A DNA stretch of 47,797 bases, from IMG/VR virus record IMGVR_UViG_2571042438_000008; one strand, 5' to 3'. Source of the DNA: a virus (taxonomy: Duplodnaviria > Heunggongvirae > Uroviricota > Caudoviricetes). Positions within the stretch are counted from its first letter, which is position 1. The number at the start of each line of letters is the position of its first letter. A program made the position numbers and the translations under genes. The notes under the pieces are model-generated. The model did not search any database. It was not told where the DNA came from and worked only from the letters and a program-made list of their open reading frames with translations. Positions 4,311 through 23,275 of this stretch are shown here, piece by piece.

Positions 4311-4725
4311 AAGATAATCATGTGACCAATTATTGTAATAATTTTAATGGTATGTTTCTACTGGCTATCCAGCGTGTCTGATATCCAGTAACAAATCGTC
4401 AACACGGGTGCAATCAAATGGTGAGTGTTAAGACTGACCACTTATTACCAGGTATGAGTGGCCAGCATTAAATCAGAACAGCCCTTTAACTGAACTGGCC
4501 GCGCTGTTAAGGGATGATGTCACCTTATCTTTGAAGCCGGACAGCATATTGCTGAACGATGAGTTTACCGCAGGTTTCTGGCTGGGAATCATTGACTGGA
4601 GTTAGGCCAGTAGTATGATGCTCGCAAAACGAGATCCAATTTAGATCCTTTTACTGGTGGATTATCGTTCGATCAGTGAGAGACTTCGTGCATGACCGAA
4701 AGTGTTGTGGTAGAGTTCTCTTAAA

Positions 4726-4740
4726 ACCACGTAACGTGGT
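4726..4740. promoter_or_regulatory. Perfect ACCAC-N5-GTGGT palindrome (operator-like) upstream of the repA control region
   Basis: The sequence is ACCACGTAACGTGGT. The same 5+5 palindrome occurs at the cI/cro intergenic region (14748, 14851) and downstream of cI (13997). Confidence 0.5.
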
Positions 4741-4782
4741 TATGATTGTGGGTGTCTGGTTGGAAAGTGACCAGATATGGAA

Positions 4783-4897
4783 ACAAAAAGCCCGCAGATA
4801 AATCTGCGGGCTTCTTGCGACATCCACGGAAAACCAACAACTAACCATGGGCGCCTCGACAACTCCCATTATACGTTGGTTTTCCGTGGACGCAAGA
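4783..4897 (-). ncRNA. Candidate CopA-like antisense RNA controlling repA
   Basis: Read on the minus strand there is a 22-bp interrupted stem (4814-4838 / 4875-4896) with a 36-nt loop. It is followed by the GC hairpin GCCCGCAGA-TTTA-TCTGCGGGC (4790-4811) and a U-run (complement of 4781-4789). A weak promoter-like TAGAGA-N17-TATGTT sits just upstream on the minus strand. The position immediately 5-prime of repA matches IncFII copA/copT. Confidence 0.55.
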
Positions 4898-4905
4898 GCG
4901 AACAT

Positions 4906-5754
4906 ATGGATAGACCAATGCCGTCTCTACGTTCAGCTTACGTTTGTAATTTGTCGCCGGAGTTCCAGCCTCCAAAGCACCATACGCACAAGCTGCCGCT
5001 GGTGTTATCTGATGCTTTACAGCGCATTAATGGGCGTGATCTTACGTGTGAGGTTGCGTTCTACGTTAATCAACCGTCAGAGCGGAAGCGCCGGATAAAC
5101 GAGCATCGTCGTCGGGCGATTAATGCTGTGATCGCTGCGATTTTGCACCATGTAAACATCATTTCTAAGCGGGTTCTGGCCAGTGCTGAGGCGTTGGCTG
5201 ATTTTTGCGGCCTGTCTACCGTATCCGAAGCTGGGAACAAGTCTATAACGCGCTGTACAAGGGCGTTGTCGCAACTGAAAGCGTTAGGTTTTATTGATTA
5301 TGAACGTCGCTGGGATCGGGTGAATAAACAGTATTGGCCAGCGAAAATAGAGATTCGTGATCAACTGCTGGAAACCGTTGGTATTACTGAACAAGCATGG
5401 AGACGTGCGGTTAGCCAGAAACTTAATTACTTCAATGCGAAGAATAGCGAACGGCTTAAAAAAGCGATAACGGAGGCTGATTATAAGCGTATTGTTATTC
5501 AGGAGCAGATGGAGAATGTATGGCATCAGAGGAAGACGGCCAGAGAGATAAAGGCAAAACAGAAAGCAGCGGAGAGAGCTGCGCGTCTTGTTCGGGAAAA
5601 GGGAGAGGCCGAACTTCGTCATCAAATCACTAGAGAGGTTAGCCAGGAATTTGCTGATGGCATGTATCCTGGAGCTGACCTTGCATATTTACGATCCCTC
5701 GTTGAGCAGCGTTATAACAGGTTAAGAAAGACCTGGAAATCACTCCAACATTAA
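4906..5754 (+). CDS. repA: Plasmid replication initiator, IncFII RepA family
   Basis: 282 aa from ATG 4906; the ORF is open from 4777 but that part is the hairpin region. The core RRAINAVIAAILHH..GNKSITRCTRALSQLKALGFIDYERRWD parallels the R1/R100 RepA1 core as I recall it (RRAIDALLQGLCFHY..GKLSITRATRALTFLSELGLITYQTEYD). A DnaA box and an AT-rich origin follow the gene. Confidence 0.85.
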   Translation: MDRPMPSLRSAYVCNLSPEFQPPKHHTHKLPLVLSDALQRINGRDLTCEVAFYVNQPSERKRRINEHRRRAINAVIAAILHHVNIISKRVLASAEALADFCGLSTVSEAGNKSITRCTRALSQLKALGFIDYERRWDRVNKQYWPAKIEIRDQLLETVGITEQAWRRAVSQKLNYFNAKNSERLKKAITEADYKRIVIQEQMENVWHQRKTAREIKAKQKAAERAARLVREKGEAELRHQITREVSQEFADGMYPGADLAYLRSLVEQRYNRLRKTWKSLQH

Positions 5755-9975: not shown

Positions 9976-11175
9976 TTATGGTCTGCTTTTCTGTGCCAGC
10001 TTATCAGCACATGTTTTTATCAGATCCTGTAGTGTCCTGGCTGGCAGGTTTGCATCCAGTACGCTGAGTATGCTGTTGTGATCTGCTTGGTCGACTACTT
10101 TGCCTGTCGGTGGTAGTAGCTTGAGCTGAGGATTCAGGTTTTCGTCAAAGCTGATAAGTGCTCTGGCGTTTCTGAGCAGATCAAGAAGTAAGGCTGATAT
10201 CACATTTTCCTGAGTCATTGCTGGCAGACTTAGCGCCGCTTTGGTTTTCCCTGTTGCCTTGTCAAACTCCTTGATTAGTTCCTTCCTGTAGTTCGGTTCC
10301 GTTAATAGCCGATTATGCTCTGTTGCCGCGCGGATAATCGTTTTTTCCTGGTATAGTCGTTTAGCCAGATCACGCTCGTACTGTGTTTTTAACACGCTGC
10401 TGATAGCGTTAAAGGCTTCAATGTAGGCCAGCTTGATATCTTTCACGCCTGGACCGTCGATGCTCTCCATGAGCAAGGTAAATCCGTCTTTTGTCATGCG
10501 ATAGATTGTTATTTCGCGGTCGCTTCCTTCCAGCGGTCGTTGCTCTTTAAAGAAGTGACGCGCCGCAGCCGTGCGAGGAATGCGTAGCGCATCGATGGCC
10601 ATAACGATGGAATTGTTTGTGGTGCTGAATGCCTGGGCAACATCGGCTGAGGTTGTGAGTGGCTCGTTGTTGCACACTTTAATGTAAAACATCGGTTTGG
10701 CGTTGAGCGTATCGACAACCTCACGAGCATTGCTTGGCGAGACGGTTACGGTCGCGGCCGTTTGCGCGTTCCGGCTGAAATAGCAGTCTTCCAGCCGTTC
10801 GAACACATCCCACGCTTGGTTAGTTTCAAGCATTTTGGCGTGACGTGCAGCCCCGCGTTCTGTCCAGAGAATGAGGGAGCGGGCTTTCGGGGAAATTTGT
10901 AACCCTCTTAAAGATGGTTGCACATTTTGTGAGTTACTTAAAGTAACCCGCAAATTTTGTGAGTGACTTAAAGTCACTCGCAAAGTTTTTAACTCATCGC
11001 CAGCCACTTTGAAAAAATGCTTTCCTTCAATAAAGCGGTTTGCGTTACGTGAGTAATTTTTTTTGATGTTATCAACGTCTGTGCCGTATAGCTTTGCCAG
11101 TAGTTCAGTAGTGATAACGGGGATCTGGTTATGCAGGATAGGCTGTAGGGTGTTAACGGTCGGAAGCGTTTTCAT
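9976..11175 (-). CDS. ant: Antirepressor-like protein (N-terminal ORF6N/KilA-N-like domain + Rha-like domain)
   Basis: The N-terminus IPVITTELLAKLYGTDVDNIKKNYSRNANRFIEGKHFFKV...ILWTERGAARHAKMLETNQAWDVFERLEDCYF is ORF6N-type. The middle EPLTTSADVAQAF..IYRMTKDGFTLLMESIDGPGVKDIKLAYIEAFN is Rha-type. The start overlaps the upstream ORF stop (ATGA). Confidence 0.8.
   Translation of the reverse strand: MKTLPTVNTLQPILHNQIPVITTELLAKLYGTDVDNIKKNYSRNANRFIEGKHFFKVAGDELKTLRVTLSHSQNLRVTLSNSQNVQPSLRGLQISPKARSLILWTERGAARHAKMLETNQAWDVFERLEDCYFSRNAQTAATVTVSPSNAREVVDTLNAKPMFYIKVCNNEPLTTSADVAQAFSTTNNSIVMAIDALRIPRTAAARHFFKEQRPLEGSDREITIYRMTKDGFTLLMESIDGPGVKDIKLAYIEAFNAISSVLKTQYERDLAKRLYQEKTIIRAATEHNRLLTEPNYRKELIKEFDKATGKTKAALSLPAMTQENVISALLLDLLRNARALISFDENLNPQLKLLPPTGKVVDQADHNSILSVLDANLPARTLQDLIKTCADKLAQKSRP
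10921..10980. repeat. Two tandem 30-bp repeats inside ant, each holding a 5-bp-arm palindrome (GTTAC-TTAAA-GTAAC / GTGAC-TTAAA-GTCAC)
   Basis: 10921-10950 and 10951-10980 differ at 4 positions. Two of those differences are compensatory (T:A to G:C) and preserve the palindrome. Confidence 0.8.
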
Positions 11176-11399
11176 TTTGCACCTCCCATAACTACTTTGG
11201 TTACGAGGGAGATTTTTGCGTCAGAAACAGCGTTATCGTTGCTGGCGATGCGCATAGCTTCGCGCTCGATGATTTCAGTCAGGCGGAATTTATCGGCGTA
11301 TGAGGCTTTCTTGAGAAGGATCTTTACGAGGTTGACGTAATAGTCATGGGGTAGGTTTGTCATTGTGATATCTCCAGTATATGGAACTATCACCGCCAT
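11172..11399 (-). CDS. Small protein translationally coupled to ant (position equivalent to P1 icd); alternative start ATG 11363 with a GGAG Shine-Dalgarno
   Basis: 75-aa ORF (63 aa from 11363). Its stop overlaps the ant start codon. I make no family call. Confidence 0.55.
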   Translation of the reverse strand: MAVIVPYTGDITMTNLPHDYYVNLVKILLKKASYADKFRLTEIIEREAMRIASNDNAVSDAKISLVTKVVMGGAK

Positions 11400-11413
11400 T
11401 CGAGGCTAATCAA

Positions 11414-11497
11414 ATGGTGGTGAGCCGTACAGGGTTAGCCTTACCGGACACAATGACGAACCGGCGCGGATTTCTCCGCCCCTGTACGACCCACCAT
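11414..11497 (-). ncRNA. Candidate structured regulatory RNA (c4-like) in the ant operon leader
   Basis: An 84-nt three-way structure. The outer stem is ATGGTGG/CCACCAT (7 bp), the second stem GTACAGGG/CCCTGTAC (8 bp), and the inner hairpins are GCGGA-TTTC-TCCGC (11466-11479) and CCGG..CCGG (11444-11464). The loop segment AGGCUAA (minus-strand RNA) is complementary to UUAGCCU, which occurs in two flanking direct repeats GAUUAGCCUC (11402-11411 and 11567-11576). Confidence 0.35.
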
Positions 11498-11525
11498 AAT
11501 TTGGGCGTAACAGTGCTCTACGCAT

Positions 11526-11545
11526 AAAAAAACCGCTAACGCGGT
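11526..11545 (-). terminator. Rho-independent terminator (minus strand) inside the ant leader
   Basis: On the minus strand ACCGC-GTTA-GCGGT is followed by T7. Confidence 0.65.
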
Positions 11546-11658
11546 ATGCGCCATCGTGTTATTCAGGAGGCTAATCCCGGCCGTAGATTTTGCTACGGCT
11601 CGGAAAGTGTCCACCAATGGCGCATTTATGTCAATACGGCGGGATTTTAACAGAGACA

Positions 11659-11673
11659 ACCACATAGCGTGGG
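11659..11673. promoter_or_regulatory. Near-perfect operator-like palindrome ACCAC-ATAGC-GTGGG in the ant leader
   Basis: 9/10 match to the ACCAC-N5-GTGGT family. It lies beside a minus-strand TAAAAT -10-like hexamer. Confidence 0.4.
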
Positions 11674-11691
11674 TTTATTGGTAGGCAGAAA

Positions 11692-11807
11692 CAAAAAAAC
11701 CGCCCTATTGAGGACGGTTCTTTCGTGCTGATCGGATTCGCGGTCCTTTCAGCATTACGTTGTTGTATAAACAACCACGCAAGCACAAGCAGCAAGTTAA
11801 TTTTACC
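11692..11807 (-). ncRNA. Candidate ~115-nt sRNA (promoter TTGAAG-N16-TATTAC, internal hairpin, strong terminator)
   Basis: Minus-strand features: -35 at 11836-11841 and -10 at 11814-11819; 5-prime region ..ACUUGCUGCUUGUGCUUGCG..; hairpin GTTGTT-TATA-CAACAAC; terminator AACCGUCC-UCAAUA-GGGCGGUU plus U7 (11692-11719). Nucleotides 11779-11793 are the exact complement of plus-strand 12037-12051. Confidence 0.45.
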
Positions 11808-12116
11808 CAAAAGGTAATAATAGTCCACTATTATGCTTCAAAAAATTGTGGTTCTTGTTGTGCCTGCAAACTCACAGATTGTGGGTAGGTTACTGATTTT
11901 GTGAAAATAAACGAGTTTTTTCGTTTAATTTCTTTCCTATTACTAATCTTAAAATAATCGTAAAATACCTGTGGACCTTCCCGCCGATTCGCACCCGGGC
12001 ACCGACTTTAGGGGAGGATTCTCCGTTGCCGTACATGCAAGCACAAGCAGCCGTGCTTGCTCTCGCGTTGTTTTCGTCGGTGGGGATGCCGTGAAACGGC
12101 CTGTAAGGGCCATACA

Positions 12117-12239
12117 ATGAAAAAATACTGTATGTGTATTTTTATCGTTGTTACTGGGGCTTTGTTTACGCCACATGGGGAGGGTTGGAAGATTACTGAT
12201 AACGCTCTGAATGTGACGATAAACATTAGCAGCAAGTAG
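12117..12239 (+). CDS. Small hydrophobic peptide (40 aa), candidate type I toxin or small membrane/secreted protein
   Basis: MKKYCMCIFIVVTGALFTPHGEGWKITDNALNVTINISSK. A strong plus-strand terminator follows immediately. A TAAAAT -10-like hexamer at 11961-11966 would give a ~145-nt structured 5-prime UTR. The Shine-Dalgarno is weak. Confidence 0.4.
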   Translation: MKKYCMCIFIVVTGALFTPHGEGWKITDNALNVTINISSK

Positions 12240-12244
12240 CGATT

Positions 12245-12268
12245 AGGCCCCTTCGGGGGCCTTTTTTT
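12245..12268 (+). terminator. Rho-independent terminator (plus strand)
   Basis: AGGCCCC-TTCG-GGGGCCT followed by T7. Confidence 0.8.
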
Positions 12269-12278
12269 ATGGCTGAAT

Positions 12279-13996: not shown

Positions 13997-14011
13997 ACCA
14001 CAAAATGTGGT
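13997..14011. promoter_or_regulatory. Perfect ACCAC-AAAAT-GTGGT palindrome
   Basis: Located between the cI stop and the next minus-strand gene, overlapping a TTGACA hexamer. Confidence 0.5.
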
Positions 14012-14747: not shown

Positions 14748-14762
14748 ACCACATTTAGTGGT
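14748..14762. promoter_or_regulatory. Operator: perfect ACCAC-ATTTA-GTGGT
   Basis: In the cI/cro divergent intergenic region. Confidence 0.6.
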
Positions 14763-14850
14763 TTTCACATGGTAAGACGAGAGGTGGACCACAAATAGAA
14801 GGTTATTTTTTGTTTCGCCCATTGAAAAACTCACGATATGTGGTTTTAAT

Positions 14851-14865
14851 ACCACGTATCGTGGT
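14851..14865. promoter_or_regulatory. Operator: perfect ACCAC-GTATC-GTGGT
   Basis: In the cI/cro intergenic region. Degenerate relatives lie at 14788-14804 (ACCAC-AAATA-GAAGGTT) and 14830-14844 (CTCAC-GATAT-GTGGT). Confidence 0.6.
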
Positions 14866-23199: not shown

Positions 23200-23275
23200 G
23201 GCCCCTTAGCTCAGTGGTTAGAGCAGGCGACTCATAATCGCACGGTCATCGGTTCAAATCCGGTAGGGGCCACCA
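23200..23275 (+). tRNA. tRNA with anticodon CAU, tRNA-Ile2 (ileX-like) rather than Met
   Basis: A 76-nt cloverleaf, GGCCCCTTAGCTCAGTGGTTAGAGCAGGCGACTCATAATCGC..GGTTCAAATCC..GGGGCCACCA, with the anticodon at 23233-23235 and an encoded CCA. The 5-prime half is identical to E. coli ileX as I recall it. The acceptor stem has C4-G69 and C5-G68. Confidence 0.9.

Follow-up and report, generated by a model that had tools for sequence, protein, structure and literature searches.

A C4 antisense RNA and two sets of complementary target sites at a probable P1-type immunity locus of an Escherichia coli phage-plasmid

IMG/VR record IMGVR_UViG_2571042438_000008 (Caudoviricetes) comprises 47,797 nucleotides (nt); this whole stretch is referred to as the window. 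The subject of this study is the minus-strand region upstream of its antirepressor gene, ant. In the direction of transcription the region contains an operator-like palindrome, a probable promoter, an IsrK-like leader RNA, a C4 antisense RNA gene, a 63-codon open reading frame (ORF) and ant itself (Table 1). Six short recognition sequences are distributed over these elements: a' and b' in C4, a1 and b1 in the leader, and a2 and b2 downstream of C4. The layout resembles that of immI in phage P1. An Rfam scan of the window at gathering thresholds returned four matches (C4, isrK, ryfA and one transfer RNA, tRNA). A sequence-only reading made earlier had listed a structured c4-like RNA, two terminators, a palindrome, flanking repeats and a small ORF before ant; all the features it listed are present at the positions it gave. 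They are far beyond chance, and Rfam matches at gathering threshold cover both the C4 element and the second of its two upstream units.

Table 1. Features of the locus and its surroundings, in window positions
Feature	Position	Strand	Basis or remark
C4 antisense RNA gene	11413-11501	minus	Rfam RF01695, 70.8 bits (cut-off 45)
a' AGGCUAA	11441-11435	minus	C4 junction
b' GUCAUUGUG	11457-11449; as (C)GUCAUUGUG(U), 11458-11448	minus	loop of C4 hairpin 2
a1 UUAGCCU	11574-11568	minus	loop of second leader hairpin; matches a' at 7 of 7
b1 ACACGAUGGCG	11559-11549	minus	pairs with b' over 11 nt, two G-U pairs
a2 GAUUAGCCUC	11402-11411 (core UUAGCCU, 11409-11403)	minus	directly 3' of C4; matches a' at 7 of 7
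b2 CACAAUGAC	11359-11367	minus	perfect 9-nt complement of b'; spans AUG 11363-11361
IsrK-like leader RNA	11526-11599	minus	Rfam isrK RF01394, 68 bits (cut-off 50)
Probable sigma-70 promoter of the isrK-C4-orf63-ant transcript	11606-11634	minus	sequence reading
Hairpin pairing the GGAG Shine-Dalgarno (11375-11372)	11365..11393	minus	fold of 11355-11412
63-codon ORF, icd position	11172..11363	minus	phrog_7886, 1-63 of 63, E = 3.6e-47
Antirepressor gene ant, 399 amino acids (aa)	9976..11175	minus	ORF6N (N-terminal) and Rha domains
Operator-like palindrome AACCCACGCTATGTGGTT	11658..11675 (core CCACGCTATGTGG, 11659-11673)	minus	motif shared with cI control region
cI-like primary repressor, 218 aa	14054..14710	minus	HTH_3 4.5e-11; Peptidase_S24 0.0018, below cut-off
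TimR-like small RNA (sRNA; unit 1)	11793-11692	minus	ryfA complementarity and terminator
ryfA	11971-12267	plus	Rfam, 141.8 bits (cut-off 80)
40-codon TimP-like ORF MKKYCMCIFIVVTGALFTPHGEGWKITDNALNVTINISSK	12117-12239	plus	weak toxic_TimP match

The C4 match spans the entire Rfam model (positions 1-87 of 87, E = 6.8e-12), and the scan, which had been suggested as a check, thus places the 84-nt element at 11414-11497 in the C4 antisense RNA family. The three-way fold proposed for this element is also upheld: a 17-base-pair (bp) closing stem encloses two hairpins, with a folding energy of -46.6 kcal/mol (z = -6.35) that none of 200 shuffled sequences equalled. Among 16 diverse homologues, the window included, 15 of the 27 predicted pairs of the C4 helices carry compensatory changes on both sides and none is disrupted apart from alignment gaps. 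The sequence-only reading had recognised no sequence similarity to P1 c4. That statement is refuted by the Rfam match, by alignment to P1 and by blastn, which finds the window leader to be about 72% identical over 112 nt to P1-like plasmids of 87-105 kilobases (kb). In a three-way alignment of the window, P1 immI and the isrK region of Gifsy-1, the -35 element, both leader hairpins, the U-rich terminator and C4 line up, including the C4 start AAUUAUGGUGGG and its CCACC end. P1 C4 is processed by RNase P. The window and P1 share the 5' context AAUUAU/GGUGGG and the CCACC 3' end, and by analogy with P1 the mature C4 RNA is predicted at about 11495-11416.

Two candidate coding frames lie over C4 and neither was accepted as a gene. 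One is a 39-codon ORF; the other opens with AUGGUGG, at the 5' end of C4, and stops after 18 codons within C4. In Gifsy-1 (2500-2645) the frame called 'orf45' begins at this AUG and runs across the C4 homologue. The AUGGUGG frame is open for more than 110 codons in 38 of the 60 related records described below, and this may be the reason why some phage records annotate an antirepressor coding sequence (CDS) over C4. We also note a conserved GGUGGUGA shortly downstream of a2 that is complementary to UCACCACC, the 3' side of the stem that closes C4. The site corresponds to window 11392-11398, where it is weaker (GGCGGUGA), and to the equivalent position in relatives (GGTGGTGA after a2). Pairing of GGUGGUGA with the C4 stem could provide an alternative structure in the unprocessed transcript.

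The isrK match upstream of C4 covers model positions 1-77 of 77. It ends in a terminator (11526-11545, minus strand) of the form ACCGC-GUUA-GCGGU followed by U7, and the stem-loop at 11545-11532 was also called by a terminator scan. A permissive scan returned in addition a match to c4-a1b1 (Rfam RF03163) at 11560-11612, with a score of 36.7 bits (cut-off 46.7) and E = 2.1e-07. The c4-a1b1 motif stands for the hairpins upstream of C4 that contain its a1/b1 targets in gamma-proteobacteria and phages; both it and C4 homologues were already known from proteobacteria and phages (Weinberg et al. 2010, PMC2864571). Despite the low score the window does have a1 and b1, and the isrK model captures the leader better than the c4-a1b1 model does. 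The two matches overlap on 11526-11612 (minus strand). RF01394 has no clan and RF03163 belongs to clan CL00128, and they appear to be two Rfam families for one RNA element.

Directly upstream of the leader, TTGACA (11634-11629) is followed by a 17-nt spacer and GACACT (11611-11606). The transcription start predicted from these elements, near 11599, is the first base of the isrK match. The -35 hexamer aligns with the annotated P1c4 promoter of P1 and with the Gifsy-1 isrK promoter region, and the site is conserved within the window's lineage. It is thus probable, on sequence grounds, that it drives the isrK-C4-orf63-ant transcript.

The TGA of the 63-codon ORF overlaps the ATG of ant as ATGA (11175-11172), with GGAGG 8 nt upstream. 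This overlap predicts translational coupling of the two genes, as had been proposed by comparison with icd-ant of P1, where icd and ant1 share an ATGA overlap as well. Pfam and NCBIfam profile searches gave no match for the 63-codon ORF. An alternative start at ATG 11399 had been put forward for it; this codon does lie 2 nt after the second repeat. It was rejected as the start since it is missing in relatives, while the PGAP annotation of the identical plasmid p142_C begins the ORF at 11363, PHROG profile 7886 also favours 11363, and ATG 11363 is conserved in every close relative, along with the N-terminus it specifies. The start codon is therefore inside b2, so that b2 would be the site at which initiation is masked, and not the UUAGCCU repeat by ATG 11399 to which the sequence-only reading had given that part. 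The repeat keeps its place as the equivalent of P1 a2. The RNA between the two sites folds (11355-11412, -16.4 kcal/mol, z = -2.88) into a hairpin at 11393-11365, which draws a2 and b2 together.

The protein encoded by ant matches ORF6N (4.5e-20) and Phage_pRha (4.6e-12) in Pfam, as well as anti-repressor families in PHROG. Over residues 1-169 it shares 49% identity with AnrP of Gifsy-1 (E = 2e-49). AnrP is an antirepressor-like protein whose translation is switched on by IsrK in trans and which induces Gifsy-1, as was shown experimentally (PMC4825925). A tandem duplication of some 30 nt is present in the window gene (about 10925-10985, minus strand) and encodes LRVTLSHSQN and LRVTLSNSQN; it is situated inside the ORF6N domain and is an insertion relative to AnrP. 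PGAP annotates ant of p142_C as two pieces, a pseudogene ('partial ORF6N') and a CDS of the Rha family, although the window has an uninterrupted frame of 399 codons.

The sequence-only reading had observed that the AGGCUAA loop of C4 is complementary to UUAGCCU in two flanking repeats. Both matches are exact over all seven positions, and the repeat GATTAGCCTC, found at 11576-11567 and 11411-11402, has no other copy on either strand of the window. That reading described one loop/target pair, which stands, and overlooked a second: the loop of C4 hairpin 2 (b') pairs with b1 in the leader and with b2 at the start of the small ORF. The b2 sequence CACAAUGAC is the sole copy on the minus strand of the window.

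Using the conserved 5' context of C4 as a query, a scan of IMG/VR gave 80 loci. The IMG/VR loci combined with P1, Gifsy-1, vB_YpM_41 and the window yielded a co-variation set of 60 distinct C4-plus-flank records, which hold 29 distinct C4 sequences, nine a' heptamers, 17 b' loops and 26 a'/b' combinations. An exact complement of a' was found in the a2 zone of all 60 records and in the a1 zone of 57; the other three match at 6 of 7 positions. When a non-cognate C4 was set against the zones of records with a different a', no match was observed (0 of 2840 ordered pairs). For b', the longest pairing run has a mean of 9.3 (b1) and 10.6 (b2) between cognate partners, and 6.0 and 5.8 between non-cognate ones.

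The same behaviour is seen within the window's own lineage, in which a'/a1/a2 and b'/b1/b2 change in concert between nearly identical flanks. In pO145_122715_2, a' is ACGCCAA and both a1 and a2 are UUGGCGU; the AR_0067 plasmid and pGMI14-004_3 have GUUCCAA together with UUGGAAC. Compared with the window, pO145_122715_2 has an identical b2, and pGMI14-004_3 differs in b as well as in a. The a and b triplets vary independently of each other in this lineage, and a Vibrio plasmid combines the a specificity of the window with a different b. The a'/b' combination of the window was seen in its own plasmid type only. Swapping of recognition triplets is the pattern expected of RNA-based heteroimmunity, which has been described for P1 and P7 (PMC12197685), and would give the window a specificity of its own. 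These data also bear on the idea that what is seen in structure and repeats is a degenerate relic, or else an attenuator that acts purely in cis, and that no regulatory RNA is produced. The divided ant annotation of p142_C is in keeping with a relic. Against it, ant is uninterrupted in the window (399 aa), none of the six recognition elements is damaged and they still complement one another, and the coordinated triple changes in relatives require ongoing selection for pairing. We regard a relic or simple attenuator as extremely improbable.

We consider it very likely that the locus is a P1-type immI secondary immunity module, in which C4 blocks translation of the antirepressor operon. The mechanism of P1 c4 has been published (PMC12197685, PMC8198154). 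The order of elements in the P1 GenBank record is Oc4, P2c4, P1c4, a1, b1, c4, a2 (4 nt after c4), b2, icd and ant1. Both the immI region of P1/P7 and the window locus comprise promoter(s), a1, b1, a terminator-like hairpin, C4, a2, b2 at the start of the small ORF, the small ORF and an antirepressor gene. P1 and the window are further alike in the C4 fold, in the placement of a' in the junction and b' in the loop of hairpin 2, in residing as a plasmid prophage and, probably, in having an operator for the primary repressor upstream. The P1 immI-like geometry that the sequence-only reading perceived, with sites up- and downstream of C4, a small ORF and an antirepressor, is thus borne out by the Rfam C4 match, the three-way alignment and the loop/target co-variation in 60 loci. 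All six recognition sequences differ between the window and P1, which points to distinct immunity specificities. The proteins differ too: the window Ant is of the ORF6N and Rha type, the repressor is of the cI/XRE type rather than P1 C1, and the window is a 47-kb phage with structural genes unrelated to those of P1.

By analogy with P1, the following sequence of events may be envisaged. The promoter at 11634-11606 would give a minus-strand transcript starting at about 11599, the first 74 nt of which are the IsrK-like leader that displays a1 and b1 and ends at the intrinsic terminator. Transcripts that read through would carry the C4 precursor, which RNase P would trim at AAUUAU/GGUGGG to an RNA of about 80 nt with a' and b' exposed. 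This RNA, presumably able to act in trans, would pair with a2 just past its own 3' end and with b2 over the AUG of the 63-codon ORF. Initiation at the small ORF would be blocked, and synthesis of Ant would be blocked as well because the ant start overlaps the stop codon of that ORF (ATGA); in P1 the block also causes transcriptional polarity. Without Ant, the cI-like repressor would hold the plasmid prophage quiescent. The a1/b1 leader RNA can in principle bind the same C4 loops and probably tunes or relieves repression, since IsrK supplied in trans switches on AnrP translation in Gifsy-1.

Several observations weigh against this assignment. The c4-a1b1 model remains under its threshold at the leader (36.7 against 46.7 bits). 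The promoter at 11606-11634 was not reported by a consensus promoter scan, because its -10 element matches the consensus at just 3 of 6 positions. BLASTP gave no alignment of the 63-codon ORF with P1 Icd, and the two are assigned to different PHROGs (7886 and 1426); the description of this ORF as an icd-position gene is therefore sound as to position and not as to homology. Nor did BLASTP give a significant match between Ant and P1 Ant1, although both match phrog_63 and phrog_1726, the window protein weakly. The protein components are thus analogous or just remotely related to those of P1. In the window b2 covers the AUG, whereas in P1 it lies over the icd ribosome-binding site and covers the Shine-Dalgarno sequence. 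Finally, the model published for Gifsy-1 invokes alternative structures of a long mRNA and an upstream ORF, not a processed C4 (Hershko-Shalev et al., PMC4825925).

The last of these points merits comparison with the window in full. The isrK-'orf45'/STnc1160-anrP region of Gifsy-1 and the window locus both have a two-hairpin leader with a terminator, a C4 homologue downstream and flanking a and b sites. In Gifsy-1 the antirepressor gene comes directly after C4 and b2 overlaps its Shine-Dalgarno sequence, whereas the window has a coupled 63-codon ORF, as P1 does. The 'orf45' frame is not kept in the window. Gifsy-1 is, moreover, an integrated prophage of the lambdoid type, where AntQ is expressed as a consequence of AnrP. 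Transferred to the window, the Gifsy-1 model would mean IsrK-type, riboswitch-like control in cis and trans without a separate C4 repressor: a silent long transcript would be opened by short IsrK, the leader would pair with the C4 region, and translation of an ORF through the C4 region would be coupled to ant. The isrK family match, the homology of Ant to AnrP, the mutational and gel evidence obtained in Gifsy-1 (PMC4825925) and the fact that the first AUG of 'orf45' is that of AUGGUGG at the C4 5' end all speak for such control. Yet the AUGGUGG frame stops after 18 codons in the window, still inside C4, after 14 in P1 and after 8 in vB_YpM_41. In close relatives the ORF that follows the terminator is anywhere from 27 to 50 codons long and its C-termini differ, which makes a conserved leader peptide reaching orf63 unlikely. 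That a2 and b2 strictly co-vary with the C4 loops is a prediction of C4-to-target pairing, and a stable processed RNA from the region, STnc1160, is reported in the IsrK paper itself (PMC4825925). We judge control of the IsrK type without a C4 repressor to be unlikely, and note that it and the C4 model are not mutually exclusive. Judged by position, helix b-I of the Gifsy-1 paper, formed between the middle of IsrK and a downstream 'orf45' segment, looks like the a1-a' pairing. To us the IsrK result indicates that an a1/b1 leader can counteract C4, and we do not count it against the C4 model.

A bolder extension of the C4 model is put forward tentatively, as something rather less than probable. 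The IsrK-like leader might be a dedicated C4 decoy, because it displays a1 and b1 in the order and spacing of the target and is made from the promoter of C4 itself. Switches of the immI type could then be three-RNA circuits of decoy, antisense and target gated by a cI-type operator, 'orf45' of Gifsy-1 could be C4 itself and not coding, and the swapping of a and b (26 combinations) could amount to a combinatorial code of RNA immunity that spans P1-like, lambdoid and 47-kb phage-plasmid lineages. If so, the choice between stopping and reading through at the leader terminator would set the ratio of decoy to repressor. The CI RNA of phage P4, with seqA and seqC, is by description another processed small RNA that pairs with repeats up- and downstream of itself; it differs in acting through premature transcription termination of replication genes. 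The authors of the IsrK study liken their system to it (PMC4825925).

The palindrome upstream of the promoter is present as had been noted, and its designation as operator-like is plausible, for the motif recurs at the control region of the cI-like gene. The motif, CCAC-N5-GTGG with A/T-rich flanks, occurs six times in the window against 0.36 expected. The interval from the cI-like gene to the first rightward early ORF contains sites at 14749-14761 and 14852-14864 as well as a near-match (14828-14845), and a further site (13998-14010) is just downstream of the cI-like gene. The three palindromes in the interval cluster like a tripartite operator. Sites are found also at 4727-4739 and 44002-14. 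Yersinia phage vB_YpM_41 has the same palindrome layout and a repressor that is 100% identical. It is thus probable that the palindrome at 11658-11675 serves as an operator of the cI type. As in P1, where Oc4 is so placed, it probably makes the module responsive to how much primary repressor is present. A sequence that could be an extended -10 promoter, TGtTAAAAT (11652-11644), would have the palindrome as its -35 zone and would then mirror the Oc4/P2c4 arrangement of P1. The cI-like gene is annotated as an XRE family regulator in p142_C; its product is presumed to be both the target of Ant and the protein that binds the palindromes.

Further upstream on the same strand lies a separate RNA, here unit 1, which the sequence-only reading had counted as the first sRNA-like unit of one leader. 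Its terminator (11692-11719, minus strand) has the form AACCGUCCU-CAAU-AGGGCGGUU followed by U7. Unit 1 has its own promoter-like site at 11827-11800 and a very stable fold (z = -6.3). Its 5' end (11793-11779) perfectly complements 15 nt of the divergent ryfA RNA (12037-12051); as we read the sequences, the duplex is 18 bp long when one G-U pair is included. The ORF MKKYCMCIFIVVTGALFTPHGEGWKITDNALNVTINISSK within ryfA matches the NCBIfam model toxic_TimP over its full length with 23 bits, below the cut-off of 45. In the timP/TimR system a divergent sRNA complements the timP 5' untranslated region with its 5' end and finishes in an intrinsic terminator (PMC7667032). The window shows the corresponding layout: a ryfA RNA, a divergent sRNA whose 5' end complements it and the terminator at 11719-11692. 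From its sequence, unit 1 is thus assigned as a TimR-like antitoxin sRNA, with the divergent ryfA/timP toxin gene as its partner, and is placed outside the immI leader. The pair is of type I toxin-antitoxin design and, beside the immunity module, is probably a plasmid-addiction cassette. A comparison of whole unit 1 with whole ryfA by RNAduplex was uninformative (-60.2 kcal/mol, shuffled mean -62.1). Unit 1 was also considered as a replication-control RNA (Rfam RNAI, 26.7 bits against 47), and this was rejected given the ryfA complementarity and the RepA replicon.

Two relatives, pO145_122715_2 (728-1300) and vB_YpM_41 (4582-5154), lack the ryfA/unit 1 cassette and have in its place an unrelated gene of 573 bp that runs on the opposite strand; one annotation calls it an XRE family regulator, the other hypothetical. 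The boundary of the exchange is exactly at the operator-like palindrome, where conservation resumes (window counterpart 11676-12270). The timP/TimR arrangement and the exchange of the cassette show that the two terminators belong to two different systems. They are both where the sequence-only reading had put them, but the first ends a TimR-like sRNA with a promoter of its own, and its description as part of an in-line leader does not hold. This also decides how we view the 480-bp tract as a whole. Three units do follow in series on one strand, each with a terminator or defined end, and might be taken for a single immI leader of two sRNA units plus C4. The promoter-like site at 11827-11800, the 15-nt ryfA complement and the timP/TimR arrangement argue against this, as do pO145_122715_2 and vB_YpM_41, which lose the cassette and keep immI from the palindrome onward. 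A single leader that includes unit 1 is very improbable.

Several E. coli plasmids of about 47.5-49 kb match the 1.15 kb around the immI locus with 100% identity. Matches to this segment in complete E. coli genomes are plasmid-borne in 76 of 79 places, and three isolated Yersinia pestis myophages (vB_YpM_39, 41 and 44) are 86% identical to it. Plasmid p142_C, one of the identical plasmids, has genes for RepA, ParA, terminase, portal, capsid, sheath, tube, baseplate, holins and an XRE-family repressor. The source of the window is therefore a myovirus-type E. coli phage-plasmid of roughly 47.5 kb. Membership in the pSLy3 phage-plasmid group was considered and dropped, that group being SSU5-related; we assign no group name. 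By blastn the leader-plus-C4 region is matched in 258 phage records, many Stx phages and Gifsy-1 among them. The RefSeq annotation of p142_C is empty between the small ORF and the next protein gene. The tRNA gene found in the Rfam scan (23200-23272, plus strand, 67 bits) is downstream of the lysis genes; its anticodon loop is CUCAUAA (anticodon CAU) and it is annotated as tRNA-Ile in p142_C.

The locus is a known kind of switch with its own recognition sequences, and it brings no new mechanism to light. It is set apart by a specificity of its own, by a coupled ORF that is placed as in P1 and unrelated in sequence, by a b2 site over the AUG and by a putative cI-type operator. Unannotated regulatory RNA genes are hereby added to a common family of E. 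coli phage-plasmids. A phage whose cI repressor is lambda-like and whose structural genes are unrelated to those of P1 thus very probably also relies on a P1-style RNA immunity switch. Between close relatives almost all differences fall in six short recognition sequences, as is characteristic of heteroimmunity, and knowing them helps to predict which relatives could induce one another when they share a cell or when one of them enters from outside.

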